Shown piece after piece: positions 722-51,746 of a DNA stretch of 52,362 nucleotides. This stretch comes from a bacterium. Lineage in GTDB: Bacteria; UBP18; UBA7526. How positions within the stretch are numbered: position 1 is the stretch's first letter; each line of letters starts with the position of its first letter. The notes under the pieces were generated by a model that had not been told where the DNA came from, searched no databases, and saw nothing but the letters and a program-made list of their open reading frames with translations. The DNA is taken from positions 1 to 52,362 of the forward strand of contig JAUWXM010000001.1 of assembly GCA_030616365.1 (NCBI GenBank). Direction: 5' to 3'. The position numbers were made by a program, and so were the translations under genes.

Positions 722-831
722 AAGTGCCTGCCCCGTAGGCTTGTCCTTCGGGGGAGCGATTCACTTGAGATAAAACCCCGCCCCCAACTGGGAACGGGGT
801 GCAATTATATCTTTATAACAACTCTTACTTG

Positions 832-2492: not shown

Positions 2493-3448
2493 TGAAGGAA
2501 GAAAAGGGAGTGGCGGTAATCATGGCCATGTGGCTCTTAGCTGTCCTGGCCATCATCGGCACTACCTTCATCTTCATGATGCGCTTAGAACCCATCATCG
2601 CCCGCACCCATCGGGATGATATGAAAGCCCTCTACGTTGCCCAGGCGGGAATAGACCATGCGGTCTATATCCTGAAGCAGGACGTTGGGGGAGATATCGA
2701 CCATCTGGGCGACCCCTGGGCAGGTGGATTTACCGATCAGCTGCTTCTGGATGAGGCGGGGTATAGCGTAGGATATTATACGGTAGAGGTCCAGGATGAA
2801 TCGGGCAAGACAAACCTCAATACCGCCCCCAAGCCCCATCTTATGGGATTGAATCTTATGACTGAGGTACGGGCAGATGCCATCATCACTTATCGGAGTG
2901 GAGACCATGGACTCCTTGAGACCGTCGATGAGTTCTTATGTGTTCCAGAAATCACCCAGACAGTCTTTGATAGGAACCGGGAGATAATCACTGTCTATAC
3001 TGATGGATTGGTAAATCTCAATACCGCTTCCTATTCGGTACTCATGGGGATAAAGGATGGAGCAGCGAGCAGCCTGGATGCTACTGATGTAACCTCCATT
3101 ATCACCTATCGTGAAGGGGCATACAGCCCCTATGATACCCTAACCCCTCCTCCTGCCGAGCCCACGGAGAAGGCCACCGAGGTGAATAATGCCAGCGAGA
3201 TTGATAATACCGAGACAGAGTATCTCACGGGAGAGGATGCCGATGGTGGAGGAGTGGCCGCGGGCGCCGAAAAGAGGGTGGATGTCAAATCGAATGGTCT
3301 CTTTACTATAATATCGCTGGGAGAGATAAAGGACGCTTCCGGGAATACCATCGCCCAGAAGAAGATAAGGGTGGTGGTCAATCGGGAGAAGGTAACGCCG
3401 TCTGTGGAAAGCAGGGTTGAGTACTACCGAGAGGTCCCAGAGGACTAA
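2492..3448 (+). CDS. GspK/PilX-like minor pseudopilin (set A)
   Basis: N-terminal hydrophobic helix GVAVIMAMWLLAVLAIIGTTF without a G|F site. YVAQAGIDHAV motif and NLNTA helix-hairpin-helix motifs typical of GspK. TGATG overlap with the upstream gene. Confidence 0.7.
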   Translation: MKEEKGVAVIMAMWLLAVLAIIGTTFIFMMRLEPIIARTHRDDMKALYVAQAGIDHAVYILKQDVGGDIDHLGDPWAGGFTDQLLLDEAGYSVGYYTVEVQDESGKTNLNTAPKPHLMGLNLMTEVRADAIITYRSGDHGLLETVDEFLCVPEITQTVFDRNREIITVYTDGLVNLNTASYSVLMGIKDGAASSLDATDVTSIITYREGAYSPYDTLTPPPAEPTEKATEVNNASEIDNTETEYLTGEDADGGGVAAGAEKRVDVKSNGLFTIISLGEIKDASGNTIAQKKIRVVVNREKVTPSVESRVEYYREVPED

Positions 3449-3508: not shown

Positions 3509-3610
3509 GTGAAATGGAGAAAGTGAACAGGCGGGCAGGTGAAACAATGAGACGGAGAAAGGGAGAGACGGAGAAAGGGAGAAAGCTCACCGATTCCCCG
3601 ATTCCCCGAC
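3509..3610 (+). repeat. Dispersed repeat copy B (same family as 1318-1448; octanucleotide present in about 3 units)
   Basis: aggtgaaacaatgagacggagaaagggagagacggagaaagggagaaagctcaccgattccccgattccccgac aligns with copy A. Confidence 0.8.
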
Positions 3611-4275
3611 TTGCCCCGTTGGAAGCCGAAGGCTTTCCTTCGGGGTTCCCCGATTCAAAGAAAAAGGGTTTTAGTCTCCTGGAACTTATGATGGTAATCA
3701 CCATTATGGGCATTCTAATTACTTCTTCCCTCTTATTTGGGAATAATTTTTTGAATAGTACTGCGGCGAAGAATGCTACCCGGGATATCGCTTCTGTTAT
3801 GCGCATGGCGCACAGCAAGGCCATGACCCTGAGAACTAATTATTATGTGGTCTATGATGCCACTAATAAAATAGTCTGGGTTCAGGATCTCAGAGGTCCC
3901 GATGGCAAGCCGGGCGTAAAGAATGTTGATGATGATAATAATGGTGTTGTCGATGAGACCGGGGAACTGGGCTGGGCCGGTTCTGACGACTTCAATATCA
4001 ATGATCCCAATACCTGGAACCCGCTCTTTGGTAGTGAAAGAAAACTTTCCAGAAGGGTGGAGATAGATAGCGTAAACGTCGAACCTGAAGATTATGGGGG
4101 CAAAAGTGATTACCAGACAGTGACGGGAGGCTCGGGCATCGGCTATCTTCCTTTCCGTTGGAATGGGACCTCCGTCTCTGGTTCGGTCAGACTGCAGGAT
4201 AGCAGAGGCAATAATCAATATTCGGTAACGGTTATGTACACTACCAGCCGGATCAGGTTATACAGTTTTTGGTGA
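3514..4275 (+). CDS. Minor pseudopilin, GspH/FimT-like (set B), long leader; start uncertain
   Basis: ...DSKKKG|FSLLELMMVITIMGILI motif. C-terminal YSVTVMYTTSRIRLYSFW matches set A GspH. An alternative in-frame TTG at 3619 would give a 17-aa leader. Confidence 0.7.
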   Translation: MEKVNRRAGETMRRRKGETEKGRKLTDSPIPRLAPLEAEGFPSGFPDSKKKGFSLLELMMVITIMGILITSSLLFGNNFLNSTAAKNATRDIASVMRMAHSKAMTLRTNYYVVYDATNKIVWVQDLRGPDGKPGVKNVDDDNNGVVDETGELGWAGSDDFNINDPNTWNPLFGSERKLSRRVEIDSVNVEPEDYGGKSDYQTVTGGSGIGYLPFRWNGTSVSGSVRLQDSRGNNQYSVTVMYTTSRIRLYSFW

Positions 4276-4375
4276 GATTGAATGATAGGTAATGGGTTTG
4301 CCTGTTCTCCGGTTTGCCTGTTCTCCGGTTTTGAACTGGTTAACTGGATAACGAAATCACCTATCGGAGGATAGC

Positions 4376-4777: not shown

Positions 4778-5491
4778 ATGTCTAAAAACCGTTTGAAGCG
4801 TTTCCTATCTCCAACGGGGTTTACCCTAATGGAACTCTTAGTAGCCATGGTTATTACGGTTCTCTTAGTAGCAGCGCTCTTTAATGTCTTTGACTTAGCG
4901 GGCCGTGCCTGGCAGAAAGGAGAGGCCCGTACCCAGAGATACCAGAACCTCCGGCAGGCCCTGGACAGGATGAGCGATGATATTCGTAGTGCTATCCTGC
5001 TCAGCATTGGCAATAATCCGGGTAAGGAAGATGGTATTAAATTCTATGGCGAGAATGATTTTAATTCTGAGGGGGATAGATTGAGCTTCATCCCCGTCTC
5101 CCATCCTCCGGATGGCTGGGATTATGGAAGCGACTATGGTGTTTCTCCTCCTGAACTATGTTTTGACTGCTGTGAGATAGGCTACAATGTCACGGGAACT
5201 ACACTCTATAGGAGGAAGCAGGAGAAGAGTGTCCCGGATGGCGAAGTCACCAACGGCGGAAGATCTGATCCACTGGCGGAACATATTACGAGATTAGATT
5301 TTACCTACTATGAGGCGGACGGCACCGAACATAACACCTGGGATTCCAGTCCTGCTGGAGCTTCCTATTGTCAAGACAAACTGCCCACCAGAGTCAGGAT
5401 TGAACTTACGGCTCAGGCAGACCTGGCCCGGGAGCAGAAGGAAGAGACTTTCACCACCGAGGTCTGGCTGGGCCAGGCTAATTTCCAGTAG
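4778..5491 (+). CDS. Minor pseudopilin, GspJ/PilW-like (set B)
   Basis: ...SPTG|FTLMELLVAMVITVLLVAALF, then RQALDRMSDDIRSA parallel to the set A GspJ-like protein. The ORF track opens at TTG 4775. Confidence 0.75.
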   Translation: MSKNRLKRFLSPTGFTLMELLVAMVITVLLVAALFNVFDLAGRAWQKGEARTQRYQNLRQALDRMSDDIRSAILLSIGNNPGKEDGIKFYGENDFNSEGDRLSFIPVSHPPDGWDYGSDYGVSPPELCFDCCEIGYNVTGTTLYRRKQEKSVPDGEVTNGGRSDPLAEHITRLDFTYYEADGTEHNTWDSSPAGASYCQDKLPTRVRIELTAQADLAREQKEETFTTEVWLGQANFQ

Positions 5492-5506: not shown

Positions 5507-7006
5507 ATGAAGATGCTAAAGAGAGAGAAGAAGAAAGGGATAGCCCTTATTATGGCCCTCTGGATAATGGTCGCTCTTCTGGTCATCTGCTCTTCTTTTG
5601 TCTATATGATGCGCATAGAGTTGCGCATCGCCAAGGACTACACCCATGGGGTCCAGGCCCATTACTTAGCCAGGGCCGGGATAGCCCGCGCCCTGGGGGA
5701 ACTCAATGCAGATAATGTTGATGCCCCACCCAATTATATAAAAACGGATAGTCTGCATGAGAACTGGTTCACTACTTTTAGTGAAAACTTTGGATATACT
5801 ACTGCAGACTATGATGAAATGGTCTGGGACGAGACGTGGTTTCCTCTGGGGGAGGGGGGTTATCAGGTCCGTCTACTAGACGAGTCCGGGATGCACAATA
5901 TTAATGCTATGGAGGGAGGGATACTCCATCCCACTAGTACGGTTGGTATGGATGACCTATTTGGAGAGACAGTAGCAGGCGAGCATAAGGCGTGTAGGAT
6001 TCGTGATTACCGGGATGACGACATCATTGCCATGAGTAATACTGGTAGTGGAACTGGCTGGGATAGTCCTGACTGCAAAAATAAACCCTATGATACCATA
6101 AGAGAGATTCAGAAGGTAAAGGATATCAATGTCGATATGAGTGGAGATGGTATCGATGATAATCCTCTGGCCCTGTATACCAATGAACTGACCGTTCATT
6201 CCCAGGATTATGATACTGACCTAGACGGCGCGGCAAGGCTAAATCTCAATCTCGCCACCCAAGCCGAGATTGCGTTTGTCCTAAATAACCCCGGCGAAGA
6301 CGCCGACCCCACCGAGGCAGCACTCTCTATATGGAATGGGATTCCCTGGTCAACTGTGGGATGTATCGATGTAGAGCTAACCGGGACTACTGATGAGAGA
6401 TCAATAACAATGAAAAAGGTTGCCGATAAGTTCACCGTAGCCCCTCCTGTCGCCGGTGCGATATATTATAAACCGGACACTCTCCCCAATGTTATTTTAG
6501 GGCCCATCAATATTAATACTGCCCCTAAGAAGTCACTTTGCTCTCTAATCTATATTGGCCCGACATGTGCAAAATATATCATTGAGACACGGCATTATTA
6601 TGGGGGCAGAGAACCCTCCGCCGCAAGGAAAGAAGATGCTGTAGGGAGTCCCACCTTTACCTATGGCGTTGCCAACAGCGGAGAGTATGGAAGAGGGGAG
6701 CTTGTATTAACTTATTGGATTGGTTCCCTCACCTTTGACCACATGTCTGACCAGGTTACGGTAAGGTCCGACCGCTTCAGAATCGTCTCCACAGGAAGAG
6801 TGGGCACTGATGGGAATGGCGATGGCAAGATTGACCCCGGTACTGCAGCGGATACCGTTTTAGCCCAGAGAAAGATTGAGGTCGTGGTGGACCGCCACTA
6901 CCATGATCAAAATCCAACGGCTAGCGGAATTGATACTGGGGTTTTCCATACCATGGGCCCCTTTGAAATCCTCTACTGGTCGGAGACCGTGCCGGAGTTG
7001 TTTTGA
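5507..7006 (+). CDS. GspK/PilX-like minor pseudopilin (set B, enlarged, 499 aa)
   Basis: GIALIMALWIMVALLVICSSFVYMMRIELRIA...YLARAGIARA parallels the set A GspK-like N-terminus. LNLNLATQ and ININTAPKKSL HhH-type motifs. Confidence 0.7.
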   Translation: MKMLKREKKKGIALIMALWIMVALLVICSSFVYMMRIELRIAKDYTHGVQAHYLARAGIARALGELNADNVDAPPNYIKTDSLHENWFTTFSENFGYTTADYDEMVWDETWFPLGEGGYQVRLLDESGMHNINAMEGGILHPTSTVGMDDLFGETVAGEHKACRIRDYRDDDIIAMSNTGSGTGWDSPDCKNKPYDTIREIQKVKDINVDMSGDGIDDNPLALYTNELTVHSQDYDTDLDGAARLNLNLATQAEIAFVLNNPGEDADPTEAALSIWNGIPWSTVGCIDVELTGTTDERSITMKKVADKFTVAPPVAGAIYYKPDTLPNVILGPININTAPKKSLCSLIYIGPTCAKYIIETRHYYGGREPSAARKEDAVGSPTFTYGVANSGEYGRGELVLTYWIGSLTFDHMSDQVTVRSDRFRIVSTGRVGTDGNGDGKIDPGTAADTVLAQRKIEVVVDRHYHDQNPTASGIDTGVFHTMGPFEILYWSETVPELF

Positions 7007-9957: not shown

Positions 9958-10128
9958 TCAAACAGTTAGTTAGCAGTTAGCACGGCAACTCCGTTGCCTA
10001 TAGTTGGTTAGTAAAAGAATAAGAAAAACAAATTTTTCCATTAAAGACCTTCAACTAACAACTAAAGCGAGCGAAGTGAGCGTGCTAACCGACTAACAAA
10101 CTAACTATCTGAGCGGAGCGAGGAAAAA

Positions 10129-11106
10129 ATGGCAGTAGATATTAAAAAGGTCCTTACCAGTCTCAAGGAGAGAAAGGAGACCACGCTCGTCTGGGGATTG
10201 GGAGCGGTTGCCCTCTGCCTGGGAGTCTTTCTCTTTATCGGTTTTATGAGAGGGGTTTCTCCTCCAGCCAGCCTGGAGGCGATTATCAAAAGAACGAAAT
10301 CCCCGGAGAGTAGGGAAGAGATTGCAGAAAAGGTCGTCGCTAAACTCAAGGAGACCCAGAAGATACCCCCCTTCATTGATTATCAGGATATCCTGACCAG
10401 AAGCCTCTTTATCAAGTCACGAGTCGGAATAGGTATAGGGGAACCTGGAGAAGGAACGGGTGTCTTTGAACTGAAGGGGCTTATTGAGATACCAGATAAG
10501 GTCAAGGCCTTTATCAATGATCCTGCGGGCAAGCCCCATCTGGTAGGGAAGGGCCAGATGATCGGCACCACAGGAGTAAAAGTAGGCGCAATTGATTTCA
10601 AGAACCAGAGCGCTACTCTAATACATAAGGATTGGACGAAGCCCCGGGTCATCAGGATGGCCAGAGAAGAGATAGAGAAAGCGGGAGACATGATAACCTT
10701 CAAACCAAGCGAAAAGAAGAAAGCAGCAGAAAAACCGAAAGGGGTCACAGAAGAGGAGGCGAAGAAGGCCATAGCAGAGGCAAAAAAAGCGTTGAGCGAT
10801 GCAAGCGATGTTATTCTTACCGCCCGCTCGGAGGGAGGGGATACTGATGAGGCCGAAGACCGGCGGGATGATGCCAAGGTCAAACTTCAGGATGCTCAGG
10901 AGGCGATGAAGGAGAAGGATTACAAGAGGGCTAAGGAGTCGGCCAAGAGTGCTCAGGCTCTTGCCCGGGAGGCAAAGAGATTGGCTGGCGAGGCAGAAGA
11001 GGAAAAGGAGGAGGAAGAAAGAAGAGAAGAAGAGAGAAGAGAAGACGAAGAAGATGAAGAAGAGGAAGAGGAGCCCGAAGGGCCGGGAGAGGAGCCCGCC
11101 TTTTAA
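10129..11106 (+). CDS. PilP/GspC-like membrane-anchored protein with a long charged coiled-coil and poly-acidic tail
   Basis: TM helix LVWGLGAVALCLGVFLFIGF. Beta-rich core FELKGLIEIPDKVKAFINDPAGKPHLVGKGQMIGTTGVKVGAIDF resembles the PilP/GspC HR domain. The last ~45 residues (from about 10970) are dominated by E, R and D. Confidence 0.5.
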   Translation: MAVDIKKVLTSLKERKETTLVWGLGAVALCLGVFLFIGFMRGVSPPASLEAIIKRTKSPESREEIAEKVVAKLKETQKIPPFIDYQDILTRSLFIKSRVGIGIGEPGEGTGVFELKGLIEIPDKVKAFINDPAGKPHLVGKGQMIGTTGVKVGAIDFKNQSATLIHKDWTKPRVIRMAREEIEKAGDMITFKPSEKKKAAEKPKGVTEEEAKKAIAEAKKALSDASDVILTARSEGGDTDEAEDRRDDAKVKLQDAQEAMKEKDYKRAKESAKSAQALAREAKRLAGEAEEEKEEEERREEERREDEEDEEEEEEPEGPGEEPAF

Positions 11107-11131
11107 AATGAATATAAATAAGGAGAAATTA

Positions 11132-12379
11132 ATGAAAATGAAGAAGAGAATAGGATTAGTGGGAATTTTGTTTGCCATTTTGATTCTTCCTGTTCATAGT
11201 TGGGCAGGAAAGGAAGTAATAATATCCCCAGCAGCTCTGGATCATTTTGTCCTGGAGGGCCCGCAGAAGACCATTGCTGGGGAGGAATTTACCCTGGTCA
11301 TCACTGCTCAGGATGCCTTCGGCAATGTGATTATTGATTACTCCCTAAGTGGTAAGGGGATAGAGATCACCACCGATGGGGTGGGGAAGATCTCACCAAA
11401 TAAGGTGCTTCCCGCACAGTTTAAAGATGGCTGGGCAGAGATCCTGCTCACCTATGATAAGGCCCAGGATATTATTCTCACTTGTAGAGAGATTGAAGGG
11501 AGGGCTTTGGGAAAGAGCGAGAGGATTGCTGTCTTTCCTGCGGGATTAGACCACTTTGTCTTGACCGCACCAAAGGAGGCTATAGCTGGGGAGTCCTTTG
11601 ACCTATGGATCAGTGCTCAGGATACCTATCGGAATACCATTCCTGATTATACTACTTCAGGGAAGGGAGTAACCATTAGCGCTTCTGGGGAGGAAAAGAT
11701 ATCACCCAGTAAGGTGGCGGCCACTCAATTTATAAATGGTGTTGCCCGGGTAAGCCTCTCTTATAACAGGGCGGAGACCATTACCCTCTCTTGTAAGGAG
11801 GAGATGGGGGAGGCTAAAGGAGAGAGTTCCCTCTTAACCATAAAGCCCGCCTCTTTAGACCACTTCCTTCTTTCTACAGCACCTACGGCCACTGCGGGAA
11901 AGAAGTTCCAGGCCACAATTACTGCCTGCGACTCCTTTGGAAATATCGTTACTGACTATGGTCAGAAGGGAAAGGGGGTTTTGCTCTTGACCAGGGGAAA
12001 GGGCCATTTGAGTCCCTCTTCCATCCCCGCCTCCCAGTTCCAGGATGGAGTAGCAAAGATAGAACTGGCCTACGATAAAGCAGAGCCCATTACCATTGAA
12101 GTGAATGAGGCAACCCCGGTTAGTAAGGTACTTCCTCCGGAAGAGATCAAGCCCCGGGTAGTCCTACCAAAAGTAACCATTCTTGTCGCTGGAAAGAAAA
12201 TCCCGGTGGAGCGCATAGATAGCGCCAATGGCTGGGCCTATGTCAGGGATGAGATCAGGTATGTCAATATCAGAATAAGGGGAGATAAGGCCGATATCTG
12301 GAGGGAGGTTCCCAGGGGAAGGACCCCGGAGACCTATCAGGCCATCCAGAGACTCTTGAGGAAGAGAGGGATGGAATGA
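11132..12379 (+). CDS. Secreted protein with three 103-aa Ig-like repeats (function unknown)
   Basis: Signal peptide MKMKKRIGLVGILFAILILPVHSWA. P[AS][AGS]LDHF[VL]L repeat starts at 11228, 11537 and 11846, an exact 309-nt period. SD aaggag lies 6 nt before ATG 11132. The ORF-track extension to 10949 overlaps the acidic tail of the previous gene. Confidence 0.7.
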   Translation: MKMKKRIGLVGILFAILILPVHSWAGKEVIISPAALDHFVLEGPQKTIAGEEFTLVITAQDAFGNVIIDYSLSGKGIEITTDGVGKISPNKVLPAQFKDGWAEILLTYDKAQDIILTCREIEGRALGKSERIAVFPAGLDHFVLTAPKEAIAGESFDLWISAQDTYRNTIPDYTTSGKGVTISASGEEKISPSKVAATQFINGVARVSLSYNRAETITLSCKEEMGEAKGESSLLTIKPASLDHFLLSTAPTATAGKKFQATITACDSFGNIVTDYGQKGKGVLLLTRGKGHLSPSSIPASQFQDGVAKIELAYDKAEPITIEVNEATPVSKVLPPEEIKPRVVLPKVTILVAGKKIPVERIDSANGWAYVRDEIRYVNIRIRGDKADIWREVPRGRTPETYQAIQRLLRKRGME

Positions 12380-25319: not shown

Positions 25320-25435
25320 GAAGTAACAAGTTAACAAGGATACAAGTTAACAAGTTCCAAGTCGTCCCAAAACTTATTGACTTATTAACTAATCAACTTG
25401 TTAACGTATTAACTCGCGACCGAAGGGAGCGTGGG

Positions 25436-26491
25436 ATGGTTGAGGCCTATCAAGTAGAGAAAGAGCCAGAGAAACCAAAGGAAGTAAACCCCGCCCCTAT
25501 GAGGGGCGGGGTAAAGAGGTCGAATAAGGGTTTCTTCTCTTCAGTCATTATTCTACTTTTGCTTGCTTCCTCTGCCTGGGGATTGGCATTAAATGCCAAT
25601 TGGCGCCAAGCGCTCTATGCCTCCTTTAAGGAGGCCTCTCTTCCCACTCCCGTAGAGACCAAAGAAGCATATCGACCGCCTAAAGAATTGACTATTACCT
25701 ACTTCGACGTTGGCCAGGGATTGGGCCATCTCATTCAGATTCCTTCAGGAAAGGTGATTATGTATGATGCGGGAGAGGGAGCGGACCCGGACAATAAGTA
25801 TAGCAAGTATCGGGGTGCGGGGGGAAAGGCTGTTCTCCCGGTCTTAAGAGGAGAGCATATTAAAAAGATTGATGTTATCGTTAGTTCCCATCCCCATAGC
25901 GATCACCAGGGAGGATTCCTTTCCATATTGAGTAGCGATGAGTTTGAGATAGGGGAAGTATTAGACCCGGGTATGGTCCATCCCACCCCCACCTATAACG
26001 CCTTTCTGGAACTGATAGAGGCAAAAGGGATACCCTATCGCATTGTGAGGGATGGGGAGATACTGGACTGGGGCCCGGAGGTCTTTGTCCAGGTCCTCTC
26101 TCCTCCTAAAGGCCAGTTATGGACTCATGCCAATGATAACTCAGTGACTATAAAGTTAATCTATGGCAAGACCAGTTTCCTTTTCACGGGAGATATTGAG
26201 AAGTTAGCCATCAATAGACTCATCAATGAGTATGGCCCGAGAATAAAGGCAGACGTGGTTCAGGTTCCCCATCATGGCTCCAATACCTCAAACGATAGGA
26301 ACTTCCTTAGATTAGTAGGGGCCTCCCATGCCGTGACCAGTGGTACTGGAGGACCACCATTTGGTCATCCCACCCCAGAGACCGTGAAGAGGTGGAGAGA
26401 GATCGGGGCCCAGGTGCATCAGACCCATCTGGATGGAGATATTACCATCATCAGTGATGGAAAGAATATAAGAGTAAAGACCTTGAGGTAA
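25436..26491 (+). CDS. Free-standing membrane-anchored/exported metallo-beta-lactamase, ComEC C-terminal-domain type, metal motif intact
   Basis: TM FFSSVIILLLLASSAWGLAL. ITYFDVGQG...VSSHPHSDHQGG...FTGDIE...VPHHGSNTSN...FGHP. An alternative ATG exists at 25499. Confidence 0.8.
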   Translation: MVEAYQVEKEPEKPKEVNPAPMRGGVKRSNKGFFSSVIILLLLASSAWGLALNANWRQALYASFKEASLPTPVETKEAYRPPKELTITYFDVGQGLGHLIQIPSGKVIMYDAGEGADPDNKYSKYRGAGGKAVLPVLRGEHIKKIDVIVSSHPHSDHQGGFLSILSSDEFEIGEVLDPGMVHPTPTYNAFLELIEAKGIPYRIVRDGEILDWGPEVFVQVLSPPKGQLWTHANDNSVTIKLIYGKTSFLFTGDIEKLAINRLINEYGPRIKADVVQVPHHGSNTSNDRNFLRLVGASHAVTSGTGGPPFGHPTPETVKRWREIGAQVHQTHLDGDITIISDGKNIRVKTLR

Positions 26492-39267: not shown

Positions 39268-40518
39268 ATGACCAGGAGGGGAAAGATTATAAATAGGGCG
39301 AATGGGAAAGCGGTCAAGAGGATGATCGATTCCCAGCCGATACTGGTAGATATTAAGCAGGCCAAGGATGTCATTCCGGAAATGACCAAGAGGACTATCC
39401 TTCATGCCGGACCTCCTATAGAATGGAAGAGGATGTGCGGACCGGTAAGGGGAGCCATAATGGGTGCCCTAATCTATGAGGGATTGGCAAGAAACCCCGA
39501 AGAGGCGAAAAAATTAGCGGCATCTGGGAAAATAAAATTTTCTCCCTGCCACCACCATAATGCGGTGGGCCCTATGGCCGGAGTAGTCTCAGCCTCTATG
39601 TATGTCTTTGTAGTCAAGAACGAGAAATTTGGAAATTATGCCTACTGCACCTTGAATGAGGGATTAGGAAAGGTATTGAGGTTTGGGGCCTATAGTGAAG
39701 AGGTAATCGAGAGGCTTAGGTGGATGGAAAAGGTCCTTGCTCCGGGCTTGAAGAAGGCGGTTAAGAAATCGGGAGGGATAAATATCAAGAACCTGACCGC
39801 TCAAGCACTTCAGATGGGTGACGAGTGCCATAATAGAAATGTTGCTGCAACATCATTATTTATAAAGGAGATTACTCCTTACTTCCTCAAGACCGATCTG
39901 GATAAGAAAATAATAAGAGAGATAATTGAGTTTATCTCGGGGAATGTTCACTTCTTTCTGAATATCTCCATGGCGGCCTGTAAGGCAACCGCAGATACTA
40001 TCCTTGGTTTTAAGAATAGTTCCTTAGTGAGCGCCATGGCCAGGAATGGGACAGAGATTGGAATAAGGGTGGCAGGATTAGGAAAGAAGTGGTTTACGGC
40101 AAAGGCCGGAATGCCCAAGGGGTTATACTTTGCGGGATATAGTGAAAAGGACGCCAATCCAGACTTAGGAGATTCCACAATATCAGAGGTCGCAGGCATC
40201 GGGGGATTTGCTATGGCCTCTGCCCCGGCTATCGTTCAGTTCATCGGAGGAAGTCCTCAGGATGCCATAAAATACACCAAAGAGATGTATGAGATTACTA
40301 TTTCCCAACATAGCACTTATAAGATTCCTTCCCTTGACTTTATGGGGACTCCTATTGGTATCGATATCAGAAAGATAGTTGAGACCGGGATTACTCCGTT
40401 TATCAATACTGGAATTGCCCATAAGAGACCGGGCATCGGCCAGATAGGAGCTGGCATCCTGCGCGCCCCCATGAGCATCTTCGAAGAGGCCTTGGTTGCC
40501 TTAAGTTTACCCCGTTAG
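39268..40518 (+). CDS. DUF1116 (YlbE-like) protein
   Basis: ILHAGPPIEWKRMCGPVRGAIMGALIYEGLA...HHHNAVGPMAGV... The family normally accompanies FdrA and DUF2877. Confidence 0.7.
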   Translation: MTRRGKIINRANGKAVKRMIDSQPILVDIKQAKDVIPEMTKRTILHAGPPIEWKRMCGPVRGAIMGALIYEGLARNPEEAKKLAASGKIKFSPCHHHNAVGPMAGVVSASMYVFVVKNEKFGNYAYCTLNEGLGKVLRFGAYSEEVIERLRWMEKVLAPGLKKAVKKSGGINIKNLTAQALQMGDECHNRNVAATSLFIKEITPYFLKTDLDKKIIREIIEFISGNVHFFLNISMAACKATADTILGFKNSSLVSAMARNGTEIGIRVAGLGKKWFTAKAGMPKGLYFAGYSEKDANPDLGDSTISEVAGIGGFAMASAPAIVQFIGGSPQDAIKYTKEMYEITISQHSTYKIPSLDFMGTPIGIDIRKIVETGITPFINTGIAHKRPGIGQIGAGILRAPMSIFEEALVALSLPR

Positions 40519-40571
40519 AGATCCTCGTCAGAGACGAGGCAGACGCTTTAGGCGTCTTATCTCTAACGGGG
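40510..40571 (+). other. 62-nt three-way-junction palindromic element (copy 1) overlapping the stop codon
   Basis: Outer stem ccccgttagagat/atctctaacgggg. Inner hairpins cctcgtc-aga-gacgagg and agacgc-tttag-gcgtct. The TAG stop (40516-18) lies in the 5' arm. Confidence 0.8.
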
Positions 40572-44060: not shown

Positions 44061-44822
44061 ATGAAGTTAATTGATCTGACTCAGCCCTTGAGTGTTTTGA
44101 CCCCTGCCTGGCCGACCTATGAGCCGTTGCAGGTGAAGTTCTTCAAGAGGTTGGCTCCCAATGGGGCCAATGGACAACTAATCACTACTTCCAACCATGT
44201 GGGGACCCATTTGGATGGTGCCTTACACTTCTGCACCCATGGAAGGGACATCGCCTCCATTCCTTTGGAGGATTTGTATGGGCCGGCAGCGGTGGTTGAT
44301 TTATCAGATATGGCAGAGGATTATGGTATTTATACCTCAAAGGATATTACCGATCGGGTGGAAGTTAAAAAAAGGGATATTTTAATCATCAATACTGGAT
44401 ACCATAAGTATGCCTGGGATCAGCCAGAGGCGGATGAGGTGAGATATATGTGTAAGCATCCTGGACCCACTATGGAGTTTGCTGATTGGTGCAAGAAGAT
44501 GGAGATTAAGTGGATCGGTGTGGACTGCGGAAGTGCCGATCATCCCATGAATACCAAGATAAGGGACTGGATGCCTCGTTTAGCCAAGGAATGCAATGAA
44601 TACTTTAAGAAGAAGCGTAAGAAGAGCATTGAGGAGATCTTTCCTTCTGACCATTATCAGCTGATGCACATTCAATTATTCCCTCATGACATCATCCATG
44701 CAGAGAACTTAGGGGGAGAGATAGATAAGGTGTTGAATAAGAGGACCATCGTGGGTTGCTTCCCCTGGAGGTTTATGGGGGGAGAATCCGCATTCTGCCG
44801 TATAGTAGCCTTTGAGAAATAA
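44061..44822 (+). CDS. Cyclase-family hydrolase (kynurenine formamidase / isatin hydrolase-like)
   Basis: MKLIDLTQPL...NHVGTHLDGALHF...IGVDCGSADHP... Confidence 0.7.
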   Translation: MKLIDLTQPLSVLTPAWPTYEPLQVKFFKRLAPNGANGQLITTSNHVGTHLDGALHFCTHGRDIASIPLEDLYGPAAVVDLSDMAEDYGIYTSKDITDRVEVKKRDILIINTGYHKYAWDQPEADEVRYMCKHPGPTMEFADWCKKMEIKWIGVDCGSADHPMNTKIRDWMPRLAKECNEYFKKKRKKSIEEIFPSDHYQLMHIQLFPHDIIHAENLGGEIDKVLNKRTIVGCFPWRFMGGESAFCRIVAFEK

Positions 44823-44832
44823 GGAGGAAATC

Positions 44833-45570
44833 ATGGAAAAAGAGTATCACATTGGGTTGAAGAAGGGAGATGTGGGAAGGTATGTCCTGCTTCCTGGTGA
44901 TCCGGCAAGAACAGAGATAATCGCCAAGCACTTTGAGAATGCTAGAGAAATGGGATTTACCAGGGAGTACCGGACATTCACCGGGACGGTAGATGGGATT
45001 AAGGTCTCTACCACTTCAACTGGAATTGGATGCCCCTCTACCGCTATTGCTATTGAAGAGTTGGCAAAGATCGGGGCGGATACCTTCATCAGGGTGGGAA
45101 CTGCTGGCTCCTTGCAGAAGGAAGTAAAATTAGGAGACGTCGTTATCTCCACTGGGGCGGTGAGGGAGGAGGGGACGACCAGACAGTATGTCCCTCTCAG
45201 TTACCCAGCAGTTGCTGATTTAGATGTAACCCAGGCCTTAGTGGAAGCAGCAAAAAAGTTAGGATTTCCTCATCATACGGGGATCGTCCACTGCAAGGAC
45301 GCCTTCTATACTGAGGGGGCAAAAGATCTGCCCTTGGCCGAACATAATGAGGAGATGTGGAAGGCCTGGTATCGCTCAAATGTCCTGGCCACCTCTATGG
45401 AGTCTAGCGCCTTATTCGTGGTCTCCTCAATAAAGAGGTTGAGGGCCGGAGAGGTATTGGCCATCATCGGCCTCACCTATGCCGATCAGCCTATCGAGAA
45501 GAAGGTAGGGATTACCGAAGCAATAAAGATCGCCATTGAAGCGGTGAAGATACTGGAAAAGGGCAGGTGA
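44833..45570 (+). CDS. udp: Uridine phosphorylase
   Basis: YVLLPGDPARTEIIAKHF...TSTGIGCPSTAIAIEELAKIGADTFIRVGTAGS...PAVADLDVTQALVEAAKKLG...MESSALF. SD aaggagg before ATG 44833. Confidence 0.85.
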   Translation: MEKEYHIGLKKGDVGRYVLLPGDPARTEIIAKHFENAREMGFTREYRTFTGTVDGIKVSTTSTGIGCPSTAIAIEELAKIGADTFIRVGTAGSLQKEVKLGDVVISTGAVREEGTTRQYVPLSYPAVADLDVTQALVEAAKKLGFPHHTGIVHCKDAFYTEGAKDLPLAEHNEEMWKAWYRSNVLATSMESSALFVVSSIKRLRAGEVLAIIGLTYADQPIEKKVGITEAIKIAIEAVKILEKGR

Positions 45571-45681
45571 GCCCCGAAGGACAAGCCTACGGGGCAAGCA
45601 AGCGGGAAAGTGAGCAGGTGAGAGGAGAGTAGTAATACCAATGCAAAATGAAAAACTTAAGATTCCCAGGGAAGTAATTAT

Positions 45682-46512
45682 TTGAAGAGTAAGCAGAGCG
45701 ATTTTTTTAAGCATCTCTTTGGCGGAGAAAAGTCATCACCGAAGATAGAGAAGAGACCCTTGGTCCTGAGCTATTCCCAGATAAGCACCTATCAGCAGTG
45801 CTCCCTCAAGTATAAGTTTCAGTATATAGAGAGAAGACCCACCAAGCCCAGCCCTCACTTAGACTTCGGAAATACCATCCATGATACCCTGAAAGACTTC
45901 CACAAAGAATTTGATCCTAAGAGAACAATCTTGGAAGATCTATTGAATCTCTATGAGAAGAACTGGGTGGCCGAGGGATACGAAAGCCAGGAGCAGGAAG
46001 AGGAGTTTAGGAAAGAGGGAGAGAGGATGCTCAGGGATTATTATCAGACAGCAATAAAGAACCCCAATCTTCCTCTTTATTTGGAGGAAAGCTTTAAGTT
46101 TCGCATGGGGGATTGCGAGATCTGGGGAAAGATCGATAGGATCGATAGGCTTCCTGATGGGGGATGGGAGATCATAGACTATAAGGCGGGTAAGAGAAGA
46201 ATAGACGAGGTAGGATTAGAAGCCGATCTAAATCCTTTAGAGATCGATGAGAACTTTCAGTTATCCCTCTATTATCTGGGCTGTAAGGAGAAGTTCAAGA
46301 AGGTTCCAAAGAAGGTGAGCCTCTACTATCTGAAGTATAATCAGAAGCTAAGTGCCACCAGGAGACCGGAGCAGTTAAGGGATGTGGAAAAAATCGTAGG
46401 TGAGGTTGCCTCCCAGATCAGGGAGAAGAAGTTTGAACCGAAGAAAGGTCCCTTATGTCCCTGGTGTGATTATAAAGAAATCTGTCCGACCTTCAAGGAA
46501 GGCCCCCGTTAA
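45682..46512 (+). CDS. Single-domain PD-(D/E)XK (Cas4/AddB-type) nuclease with a 4-Cys cluster; close paralogue of half 1 of 18868..20493
   Basis: QQCSLKYKFQYIERRPTKPSPHLDFGNTIHDTL, GKIDRIDRLPDGGWEIIDYKAG, FQLSLYY, CPWCDYKEIC. TTG start. Confidence 0.8.
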   Translation: MKSKQSDFFKHLFGGEKSSPKIEKRPLVLSYSQISTYQQCSLKYKFQYIERRPTKPSPHLDFGNTIHDTLKDFHKEFDPKRTILEDLLNLYEKNWVAEGYESQEQEEEFRKEGERMLRDYYQTAIKNPNLPLYLEESFKFRMGDCEIWGKIDRIDRLPDGGWEIIDYKAGKRRIDEVGLEADLNPLEIDENFQLSLYYLGCKEKFKKVPKKVSLYYLKYNQKLSATRRPEQLRDVEKIVGEVASQIREKKFEPKKGPLCPWCDYKEICPTFKEGPR

Positions 46513-46571
46513 AGACTCAGTTTCTTTTTTTCTCGCCATTTTATTTCCCCTTTAATTTTTTTGGAGATTCT

Positions 46572-50099: not shown

Positions 50100-51353
50100 A
50101 TGGATATTGTTGCCTTGAAAGAAAAAACCATCTCTGAGTTGAGTGACGTGGCGAAGAAGATGAGGATTCCTGGAATAGGCAATTTGAGGAAGCAAGAGCT
50201 CATCTTCAAGATATTAGAGGCCCAGACGAAGAAGGAGGGTCTTTTATTTGGGGAAGGGGTCTTGGAGATCCTTCCCGACGGCTTCGGCTTCCTGCGTTCC
50301 CCCAATACTAACTACCTGCCCGGCCCAGATGACATCTACGTCTCTCCCTCTCAGATAAGGCGCTTCAGCCTCAGGAAAGGGGATACTGTCTCCGGCCAGA
50401 TTCGGCCCCCAAAAGAGAGTGAAAAGTTCTTCGCTTTACTTAAGGTTGAGGCAGTAAACTTTGAAAACCCAGAACTGGCTAAGGAGAAGATACTATTCGA
50501 TAACCTCACCCCCCTATACCCTAAGGAGAAGATTAGACTGGAGACGGGAGCCGATACTATCTCAGAGAGGGTCATGGACCTCTTAACTCCTATCGGGAAA
50601 GGTCAGAGGGGCCTAATCGTCTCTCCTCCCAGGGCAGGAAAGACCATTCTATTGCAGAAGACCGCTAATTCCATCACCACCAACCATCCAGAGATAATCT
50701 TGATTGTTCTCTTGGTTGGAGAAAGGCCAGAAGAGGTGACGGATATGGAGCGAAGCGTCAAAGGAGAGGTAGTCTCCTCCACCTTTGATGAACCGGCCAC
50801 CCGCCATGTCCAGGTGGCAGAGATGGTATTGGAGAAGGCCAAGAGGCTTGTGGAGTATAAGAAGGACGTGGTCATTCTCTTGGACTCTGTCACCAGGTTG
50901 GCCCGGGCATATAATACTATTTGCCCCCATTCGGGAAAGATACTGACTGGAGGGGTGGATGCCAATGCCTTACCCAAGCCTAAGAGGTTCTTTGGTTCGG
51001 CACGCAACATTGAAGAGGGTGGTTCCCTAACCATTCTGGCTACGGCGCTCATTGATACGGGAAGTAAGATGGATGAAGTAATCTTTGAGGAGTTCAAGGG
51101 AACGGGGAATATGGAACTGGTCCTCGATAGAAGGCTGGTGGATAAGAGGATATTTCCCGCCATTGATATCTCGCGAAGCGGGACGAGAAAAGAAGAACTC
51201 TTACTGGATAAGGAGGATTTGAACAAGGTCTGGGTCTTGAGGAAGGTATTGAGTCCGCTCGATGTTGTTGAGAAGATGGAACTCCTAATTGAAAGGCTGA
51301 AAAAGACTAAGACCAATAAGGAATTCTTAGCGTCCATGAATTCACCCCGTTAG
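50100..51353 (+). CDS. rho: Transcription termination factor Rho
   Basis: N-terminal [20 protein letters not shown], an RNA-binding domain (GFGFLRSP), Walker A ([12 protein letters not shown]), and a C-terminal [22 protein letters not shown]. Confidence 0.95.
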
Positions 51354-51406
51354 AAGTCCACACCGCTGGTGTGGCACCCGCCTGAGGCGGCTTACTTCTA
51401 ACGGGG
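51345..51406 (+). other. 62-nt three-way-junction palindromic element (copy 2) overlapping the rho stop codon
   Basis: Outer stem ccccgttagaagt/acttctaacgggg. Inner hairpins ccacac-cgctg-gtgtgg and ccgcc-tga-ggcgg. The TAG stop lies at 51351-53 in the 5' arm. Confidence 0.8.
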
Positions 51407-51524
51407 CAAGGGAGGGCGCCGGGTGCGACGAATATAAGGAGCACCGACTGAAGCGATGGCACAAGGAAAGGCGCGGGCGCGAGTCGGTGAGCGCCCCGGG
51501 TCGACGACTAAAAGGAGGAGACAA

Positions 51525-51746
51525 ATGAAGAAGGAGATTCATCCTAAGTATGTAGACTGCACCATTACCTGTGCCTGTGGGAACGTCATCCATACCAGAG
51601 CGACCAAGCCCAGCATCAGAGTGGAGATCTGCTCTGCCTGCCATCCCTTCTTCACGGGAAAGCAGAAACTGGTTGATACTGCGGGAAGAGTAGAGAGGTT
51701 CAAAAGGAAGTATGGATTGGGCGAGAAAAAAGAAGAGAAGAAATGA
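51525..51746 (+). CDS. rpmE: 50S ribosomal protein L31 (Cys-containing type A)
   Basis: [21 protein letters not shown]...[18 protein letters not shown] aaaggagg before ATG 51525. The ORF-track extension to 51456 is not supported. Confidence 0.9.

Follow-up and report, generated by a model that had tools for sequence, protein, structure and literature searches.

Two palindromes overlapping stop codons in a UBP18 bacterium are probable copies of a miniature transposable element with a 13-nt terminal inverted repeat

We analyzed a 52,362-nt stretch of DNA (hereafter, the window) from a bacterium of the lineage UBP18 (UBA7526; GenBank assembly GCA_030616365.1, contig JAUWXM010000001.1, positions 1 to 52,362 of the forward strand), in which two 62-nt palindromic elements overlap the stop codons of an AllG-like gene and of rho. 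An earlier note, written from the DNA letters alone, had proposed a Y-shaped element tied to stop codons and selected for its fold, and had listed REP/MITE-like DNA as one option among several. That option proved essentially right: both elements are very probably copies of a non-autonomous DNA transposon, i.e., a MITE (miniature inverted-repeat transposable element). They are short and non-coding and have terminal inverted repeats, and their family shows a target-site duplication of fixed length, multiple copies and insertion polymorphism. The overlap with stop codons is a frame accident of the landing site. The window copies are probably without a dedicated host function, and may incidentally stabilise or insulate the 3′ end of a transcript.

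The coordinates, lengths and sequences previously described for both copies were confirmed in the window, where the exact 10-mers CCCCGTTAGA and TCTAACGGGG occur in the four arms of these elements only. Copy 1 (40510–40571) lies between the genes for an AllG/DUF1116 protein (PF06545) and an aldehyde:ferredoxin oxidoreductase, and is laid out as CCCCGTTAGAGAT / CCTCGTC-AGA-GACGAGG / C / AGACGC-TTTAG-GCGTCT / T / ATCTCTAACGGGG. Its left 13-nt terminal inverted repeat (40510–40522) is CCCCGTTAGA followed by GAT, its right repeat (40559–40571) is ATC followed by TCTAACGGGG, and the inner hairpins A and B occupy 40523–40539 and 40541–40557, respectively. The TAG in the left repeat (40516–40518, forward strand) is the stop codon of the AllG-like open reading frame (ORF) at 39268–40518. 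Copy 2 (51345–51406), between rho and rpmE, is laid out as CCCCGTTAGAAGT / CCACACC-GCT-GGTGTGG / CAC / CCGCC-TGA-GGCGG / CTT / ACTTCTAACGGGG. The left repeat (51345–51357; CCCCGTTAGA followed by AGT) and the complementary right repeat (51394–51406) enclose hairpins A (51358–51374) and B (51378–51390), and the TAG at 51351–51353 of the forward strand ends the ORF encoding Rho (50100–51353). The 13-bp outer stems are perfect, with arms 100% complementary in both copies; the two copies differ at positions 11–12 of the arm (GA in copy 1 and AG in copy 2), and the opposite arm is changed complementarily.

Both window copies were predicted to fold into a three-way junction, with energies of −38.9 kcal/mol for copy 1 (z = −7.5) and −37.8 kcal/mol for copy 2 (z = −5.9), and none of 200 shuffled sequences was as stable (0/200). 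The opposite strands were equally stable (−39.9 and −40.5 kcal/mol, respectively); i.e., both strands fold alike, as those of a DNA palindrome should. The U-tract that an intrinsic terminator requires did not follow the outer stem at either window copy, and the earlier judgement that neither is a classical terminator therefore held. Rfam gave no match in the window at the gathering threshold; at E ≤ 10, it gave only generic miRNA-type hairpin matches of 12–20 bits against thresholds of 40–100 bits. Copy 1 was the best match to covariance model R1 (87.8 bits), and copy 2 scored 82.2 bits.

A repeat family with conserved ends and variable interiors

We scanned one genome per species for the pattern CCCCGTTAGA-N30-60-TCTAACGGGG and searched metagenomes for the element ends; L numbers are labels of the loci gathered in these genome and metagenome scans. 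Paired ends were present at at least 120 loci in species-representative genomes, compared with approximately 17 expected by chance according to our own estimate, and at at least 120 loci in metagenomes. The conserved unit is a 13-nt terminal inverted repeat with 10 positions that are invariant by the definition of the search and three that are variable yet complementary. Positions 11, 12 and 13 were complementary within a copy in 92%, 87% and 72% of cases, compared with 43%, 59% and 31% when arms were swapped between copies, and at least 14 different triplets were found there. Since complementarity dropped to background at position 14 (21% within copies and 28% after swapping), the repeat is exactly 13 nt long. 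The compensated stem changes first noticed between the two window copies are thus real and occur family-wide. The elements ranged from 23 to 260 nt and their interiors from approximately 15 to approximately 250 nt, running from AT-rich unstructured DNA to GC-rich hairpins without conservation. The inner hairpins of the two window copies are indeed unrelated in sequence, as had been stated, but this is not peculiar to them, because interiors are generally variable across the family.

The 4-mers flanking an element were identical in 61 of 134 copies, compared with 9.3 expected (maximum of 19 in 1000 permutations). The commonest duplicated 4-mers were TTTA, TAAA, TCAA, TTCA, TGAA and TTGA, and the reconstructed targets gave the symmetric consensus g|TNNA|c. 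In an independent sample from metagenomes, for which matches were chosen by one end and a TTTA flank alone, 125 of 133 ends had a partner within 400 nt, and the far flank was also TTTA in 61 of 110 unique copies.

Insertion polymorphism was found at orthologous sites at the 3′ ends of both rho and the AllG-like gene. The rho neighbourhood is one of conserved housekeeping synteny (polA-coaE-rho-rpmE-prfA), and its rho–rpmE junction was empty in L123 (...ATGAATCGAGGGGGATGAAATG) and L125 (...ATGAATCAGGGAGGTTGATATG), in which 2 nt separate the rho stop from the following rpmE ATG. The same site held the 62-nt copy in the window, a 29-nt mini-hairpin in L126 and a decayed copy in L121. In relatives with Rho proteins 92–93% identical, this site is taken by copies in different states of decay, and neither window copy has a recognisable duplication; from this we infer that the window copies are old. 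The window Rho, for which no identical sequence was on record, ends in ..SMNSPR*, compared with ..SMNS* in more distant Rho proteins. Likewise, the AllG orthologues of L133 and L134 were without the element, and the AllG-like protein ends in ..ALSLPR* in the window and in ..ALSKI* or ..ALSKK* in relatives. Both window copies lie 0–2 codons from the ancestral stops, and the relatives with empty sites keep intact rho and allG genes. Between copy 2 and the start of rpmE, the window also has approximately 120 nt of extra GC-rich DNA (51407–51525), a stretch without counterpart in L123, L125 and L126, which have 2–35 nt there.

Among the listed loci, the hosts were Patescibacteria (many classes), Omnitrophota, Cloacimonadota, Nitrospirota, Nitrospinota, KSB1, Stahlbacteria and Clostridia, together with Planctomycetota (Pirellulales, Phycisphaerae and Brocadiaceae), Bacteroidota, Melioribacteraceae, Desulfobacterota and Gammaproteobacteria; six viral contigs also carried the element. 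This phylogenetic breadth is unusual. Genomes held multiple copies (two in the 52-kb window and two or three loci in several bins, e.g., CAZQYB01, DCOU01 and MFKK01), and nested or tandem copies occurred at L012, L034, L047 and L063 as well as in subfamilies of 95 nt and 127 nt. An assembly artefact is unlikely because the host assemblies came from many studies and assemblers and included a 1.7-Mb contig and one single-cell genome. Among L135–L254, the 95-nt subfamily was abundant (e.g., L157, 2352–2446), and its 127-nt derivative (e.g., L250, 2050–2176) had a second palindrome nested in the loop of the inner CCCCGCTG...CAGCGGGG hairpin. The near-identical 95- and 127-nt copies in many freshwater and sediment metagenomes suggest recent activity.

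Neither 10-mer of the terminal repeat was found in any relevant paper, and the searchable literature gave no description of the repeat; the family therefore appears to be undescribed there, whereas its kind (MITE) is already known. A paper on a 77-bp inverted repeat of Porphyromonas gingivalis (PMC3969353) was set aside as unrelated, because CCCCGTTAGA appears in it only as a synthetic bulge oligonucleotide.

Reading frame and gene ends

The proposed tie to stop codons did not extend to the family. PR-TAG closed an ORF of at least 100 codons at only 11 of 287 element ends, and most copies were intergenic in both the genome and the metagenome sets. A further 30 ends fell within long open frames, their phase being C|CCC|GTT|AGA, for which the read-through product is x-P-V-R...S-N-G-V/A. 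With a genic copy defined by at least 60 open codons on each side of the element, the genome set contained 24 genic copies, all of them (24/24) 3n+2 nt long; the non-genic remainder was distributed 47:23:20 by length modulo 3. The metagenome set added 12 genic copies, 11 of them 3n+2 nt long, for a total of 35/36. Together with the duplicated 4 bp, a length of 3n+2 comes to a multiple of 3, which preserves the reading frame. At least 36 copies were read straight through inside ORFs, which argues against the suggested Rho-, ribosome- or mRNA 3′-end signal.

By eye, the proteins hosting genic copies included SecA, DnaE (DNA polymerase III alpha), UvrA, HolB, PrmC, HypE, TsaC/Sua5 and a radical-SAM enzyme. 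The insert in UvrA was a clean 19-residue gap relative to Geobacillus UvrA (PDB 2r6f), which equals (53+4)/3. In DnaE, 27 residues were unaligned, compared with 2 in Thermus DnaE (PDB 2hpi), the predicted insert being (68+4)/3 = 24. Phase 0 of the repeat reads CCC-CGT-TAG. Since this phase encodes TAG, insertions in it should be survivable only at the extreme C-terminus, which is where both window copies sit.

These observations can be accommodated by the following mechanism. A dimeric DDE/DDD transposase supplied in trans would make 4-nt staggered cuts and insert the element, by cut-and-paste or copy-and-paste, at g|TNNA|c sites with duplication of 4 bp. In compact host genomes, many insertions would strike genes, where only the frame-preserving and stop-free ones would survive; such filtering would account for the 3n+2 excess and for the translated x-PVR...SNG-V/A inserts in essential proteins. 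An insertion in the CCC-CGT-TAG phase would truncate the protein and would be tolerated solely at the very C-terminus, as in the AllG-like gene and rho.

Two other gene-associated sites were noted. In the window, a PD-(D/E)XK/Cas4-like ORF (45682–46512) ends in ..GPR* at CCCCGTTAAAGA (46504–46513), which differs from the left end of the element by one mismatch and is not followed by a right arm; either the copy has decayed or the match is due to chance. At L012 (Jorgensenbacteria, MFKK01000008), a tandem pair of 80-nt copies (2942–3105) and a third copy (6121–6200) lie in the leaders of two pseudopilin genes. The target TTTA is within GGG-TTT-ACx (G-F-T), and the motif for prepilin cleavage, G|FT (G|FTLIE), is re-formed from the element end and the duplication; therefore, the insert would be removed with the leader.

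Competing explanations and the search for a transposase

The alternative that fared best, although we consider it unlikely, is an element of the repetitive extragenic palindromic (REP) or REPIN kind, moved as a single-stranded hairpin by an HUH enzyme, i.e., a REP-associated tyrosine transposase (RAYT) or an enzyme of the IS200/IS605 type. Past the first 10 nt, the hairpin seems to matter more than the sequence; positions 11–13 covary, and inner hairpins are conserved. Several other families of CCCCG...CGGGG hairpins are present in the window; counted as CCCC...GGGG hairpins with an arm length of 9 bp or more, there are 8, compared with 0.83 expected. Copies are clustered and nested, and no autonomous DDE partner was found. 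The family resembles REPs and REPINs in its abundant GC-rich hairpins at gene ends, its inverted pairs folding into long hairpins, the importance of structure and the lack of an internal transposase. However, IS200/IS605 and RAYT elements are not known to make a target duplication, whereas variable 4-bp direct repeats flank about half of the present copies. REPs are also tagged, species-specific and essentially extragenic, whereas the present element enters genes and crosses phyla. A GTAG or CGTC tag on one end, which serves to class REPs (PMC3733652), is lacking, and the ends are symmetric, with CCCCGTTAGA on both sides. By eye, the duplicated 4-mer and the repeat triplet looked unrelated, with no sign of a guide–target relation, and the symmetric g|TNNA|c target suggests a dimeric enzyme acting on duplex DNA. 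We noticed no Y1 transposase in the vicinity of the copies, although no systematic search for one was made.

A selected structured RNA or transcript 3′-end element at stop codons, serving as a stabiliser, a processing site or a Rho- or ribosome-related signal, is in our judgement quite improbable. The very stable fold of the window copies (z = −6 to −7.5) speaks for it, as do their location at gene 3′ ends and an identical 23-nt hairpin directly after two other stop codons of the window. Covariation within the Y-shaped subfamily is a further point in its favour, and here the earlier claim of a conserved fold was correct in part: the structure is real, but the Y shape is not family-wide. Among 140 unique copies, 99 gave only one outer stem, around an interior without structure; Y shapes account for approximately 10% of copies, and the interior was more stable than shuffled sequences (z < −2) in only 20%. 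The Y shape is instead a heritable trait of one subfamily of 62–66 nt, composed of repeat, 7–8-bp hairpin, 1–3 nt, 6–8-bp hairpin, 0–2 nt and repeat, which was found in the window, Phycisphaerae, Sedimentisphaerales, Pirellulales, Omnitrophota, Zambryskibacteria, Parcubacteria and Saccharibacteria.

Covariation was counted on 14 Y-shaped sequences. A standard pair was formed in 90.6% of cells, compared with 75.4% in shuffles and at most 48% when partners were slid; 15 of 26 pairs were changed on both sides (10.2 in shuffles), as were 64 cells (20.9 ± 4.1 in shuffles, with 0/500 reaching 64), and the test is partly circular because the members were chosen by their fold. Hairpin A of copy 1 (helix 2), hairpin B of copy 1 (helices 3 and 4; homologous to hairpin B of L009 and L090) and both inner hairpins of copy 2 are among the covarying parts. 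Several Y-type copies (L009, L014, L037 and L084) are translated inside genes; any selection on the fold is therefore likelier to concern the element itself, in the form of a DNA hairpin or cruciform, than the 3′ end of a host mRNA. Alternatively, the covariation could stem from palindrome-templated repair, which would need no selection. In addition to the low frequency of stop-codon ends and the many copies read through in ORFs, the RNA explanation is opposed by the irrelevance of orientation, the similar folding of both strands, the mostly unstructured interiors, the flanking target-site duplications, the empty sites in close relatives with intact rho and allG, and the lack of a U-tract and of an Rfam match.

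It is very improbable that the insert is a selected peptide module, whose PVR...SNG(V/A) sequence benefits the host proteins. The phase of genic copies is biased (approximately 21 in phase 1 and 3 in phase 2 in genomes, and 12/12 in phase 1 in metagenomes), and 3n+2 copies are open in 68% of cases, modestly above the approximately 57% obtained with a shuffled interior. However, phase 2 is open as often as phase 1, suggesting that target and codon composition probably account for the phase bias; only 3–4 residues per terminal repeat are conserved, the interior peptides are unrelated, the host proteins are mutually unrelated and most copies are intergenic. An integron attC-like recombination site, with its core sites GTTRRRY and RYYYAAC, imperfect palindrome, variable and sometimes branched interior, structure kept over sequence and position after an ORF, resembles the window copies in the GTTAGA and TCTAAC of their ends, but is scarcely credible, because the attC order RYYYAAC...GTTRRRY is inverted here (GTTAGA at the 5′ side, TCTAAC at the 3′ side, CCCC/GGGG outside) and the copies lie in housekeeping synteny without cassette arrays, have duplications and occur in frame in essential genes.

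By comparison, the family behaves as a MITE. Classical MITEs (Correia/NEMIS of Neisseria, Nezha of cyanobacteria, QMITEs of Coxiella and ERIC) share with the present family terminal inverted repeats, a duplication and the lack of coding capacity, and also nesting, transcripts that form hairpins, a position at the ends of genes and, on occasion, genic copies in frame, according to the available text of a 2024 review of prokaryotic MITEs (PMC10969869). They differ in being confined to a genus or family and in usually having a recognisable parent insertion sequence, whereas the present element is cross-phylum, conserves 13 bp and had no parent that we could find. The closest analogue is the Rickettsia palindromic elements (RPEs), which are likewise palindromic selfish DNA, inserted in frame in unrelated, often essential genes and translated. 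The same review, in its available text, singles out RPEs for frequent in-frame genic insertion (PMC10969869). RPEs are approximately 100–150 bp long, restricted to Rickettsia and have a conserved peptide per family, whereas the present element is 23–260 nt long, conserves its 13-bp repeat alone, makes a 4-bp duplication and occurs in about a dozen phylum-level groups; given these different hosts and sizes, we regard the likeness as one of analogy, not membership.

As for the enzyme that would move this MITE, a transposase of the IS1380/piggyBac type is the most plausible candidate, but a lead that we hold only tentatively. It is suggested by the 5′-CCCC...GGGG-3′ ends, the short repeat and the 4-bp duplication with T first and A last. 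The piggyBac repeat is CCCTAGAAAGATA, the repeat of the present element is CCCCGTTAGAAAT, and that of an environmental IS1380 element is CCCTAAAAAAGAGATAGG. In piggyBac, whose relative among prokaryotes is IS1380, TTAA is duplicated and the repeats begin with CCCT or CCCA (PMC10813416). A term search for IS1380 and piggyBac in the available text of the MITE review (PMC10969869) gave no match. We found no transposase of either kind bounded by CCCCGTTAGA, and TTAA was never seen as a duplication of the present family.

In an all-against-all BLAST of the 908 ORFs of the first 126 loci, no recurrent transposase-like protein was found. A phmmer search with an ISEcp1 transposase sequence as query gave one IS1380-family gene (PF13701), at L156, 4.3 kb from a MITE copy. 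It belongs to an environmental IS1380-family insertion sequence (L255–L264, and L156 at 10030–11355), which is abundant and encodes a 440-aa PF13701 transposase. Its ends are CCCTAAAAAAGAGATAGG.../...CTATATCGGGATTTGGG; the left end resembles the piggyBac terminal repeat, and the ends are similar in style to those of the MITE, not the same. One clean duplication was seen for this insertion sequence, the 5-bp TCAAT of L263.

Candidates for an autonomous element or its borders were examined and rejected. The inverted pair CCCCGTTGGA...TCCAACGGGG at 3614 and 4810 of the window (1.2 kb apart) encloses pseudopilin genes, and the sequence at 4810 codes for the prepilin motif SPTGFTLMEL. A 2.1-kb pair of ends in L105 encloses, by eye, a threonyl-tRNA synthetase gene; the three 80-nt copies in L012 flank pseudopilin genes with no transposase; and a solitary end in L059 is intergenic, within an ABC-transporter locus.

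Several points weigh against the MITE interpretation. Approximately 45% of copies are without a recognisable duplication, including both window copies, which are flanked by TTTA/CAGG (copy 1) and TTCA/CAAG (copy 2), and palindromic duplications such as TTAA and TATA are absent among the 61 listed. Covarying repeat positions and conserved inner hairpins would be superfluous if a protein simply bound duplex DNA, which hints at a structure-dependent step. In the approximately 1.5 Mb examined, with scan patterns of up to 600 nt, we found neither an autonomous copy with the ends of the element nor a transposase beside a solitary end, and 0/133 sampled ends had a partner more than 400 nt away. The IS1380 element of L156 and L255–L264 has different ends (CCCTAAAAAAG.../...GGGATTTGGG), and none is bounded by CCCCGTTAGA. 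Finally, the hosts are all metagenome bins bar the one single-cell genome, and some of their phylum assignments could be binning errors.

Other repeats in the window and what the family means

Some of the other hairpins in the window resemble the element. At 25489–25511, a 23-nt mini-hairpin, CCCCGCCCCT-ATG-AGGGGCGGGG, has a perfect 10-bp stem and TAAA/TAAA flanks. Being 27 nt with its duplication (23+4), it is in frame close to the N-terminus of the ORF at 25436–26491 and reads N-P-A-P-M-R-G-G-V-K; it probably belongs to the same superfamily, as a minimal member whose terminal repeat differs. Upstream of that ORF, in the intergenic stretch 25324–25411, direct and inverted TAACAAGTTAACAAG / AACTTGTTAAC motifs form a cluster that may be an array of putative protein-binding sites.

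A 48-nt palindrome, CCCCGCACCTTT...AAAGGTGCGGGG, with TTCA/TTCA flanks (230–277) lies in the leader of a prepilin-like ORF (197–721), which reads MKRGKG[DSPRTFKKSAGRIQKGAG]FTLIEL. An 81-nt element of L117, which has CTAA/CTAA flanks, starts its repeat in the same way (CCCCGCACC). The palindrome and its duplication amount to 52 nt, which is no multiple of 3, and removal of 54 nt restores MKRGKGFTLIEL; therefore, a simple insertion model does not fit exactly. A degenerate relative, CCCCGTTGGAAGCC-GAAG-GCTTTCCTTCGGGG, occupies 3614–3645 in the N-terminal extension of a pseudopilin ORF (3514–4275). The hairpins at 25489–25511 and 230–277, with the 23-nt pair described below, suggest, on thin support, a wider superfamily with CCCCG ends. 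Around the pseudopilin genes, short tandem repeats were also seen at 3540–3600 and 4290–4330 (GAGACGGAGAAAGGGA x2, GATTCCCC x2 and GGTTTGCCTGTTCTCC x2), and TTCCCCGA(T/C)T is repeated on either side of the 3614–3645 hairpin.

The imperfect 23-nt hairpin CCCCGTAGGCTTGTCCTTCGGGG mentioned above is located at 731–753 (forward strand), after the stop of the ORF at 197–721, and its reverse complement at 45572–45594 (reverse strand), after the stop of the ORF at 44812–45570. Both lie 2–10 nt past the stop codon and have no flanking duplication; they may represent a small repeat family of their own or a hairpin resembling a terminator. At 9976–10089, the window has an inverted repeat of 31 nt, GTTAGCACGGCAACTCCGTTGCC.../...GTGAGCGTGCTAAC, which is imperfect, has arms 52 nt apart and resembles the CIRCE operator (TTAGCAC...GTGCTAA) at its ends.

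On a broader and more speculative reading, to which we give rather little weight, these elements would form a superfamily of hairpin transposons with CCCCG...CGGGG ends and a TNNA duplication, spread over many bacterial phyla, recognised largely by structure, lacking an autonomous copy, moved by an enzyme with foreign ends, and frame-preserving or translatable in compact genomes. If so, the enzyme could be an IS1380/piggyBac-like protein, host-resident or domesticated, or one delivered by phage, and, in the Candidate Phyla Radiation, Omnitrophota and Planctomycetota, the element would keep adding loops to essential proteins, e.g., to UvrA, DnaE, SecA and the leaders of prepilins.

For the bacterium studied here, what had looked like a stop-codon element is mobile DNA. 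The element repeatedly causes contigs to break and gene ends to be mis-called, e.g., as false PR* C-termini and extra loops in conserved proteins, and it provides a natural experiment on the tolerance of essential proteins to insertions of 17–30 residues. The 13-bp end with its three covarying positions and the g|TNNA|c target offer a handle for the transposase hunt. If the span of a dozen phyla is true, the family would be useful for tracing horizontal transfer between uncultivated bacteria of groundwater and sediment.

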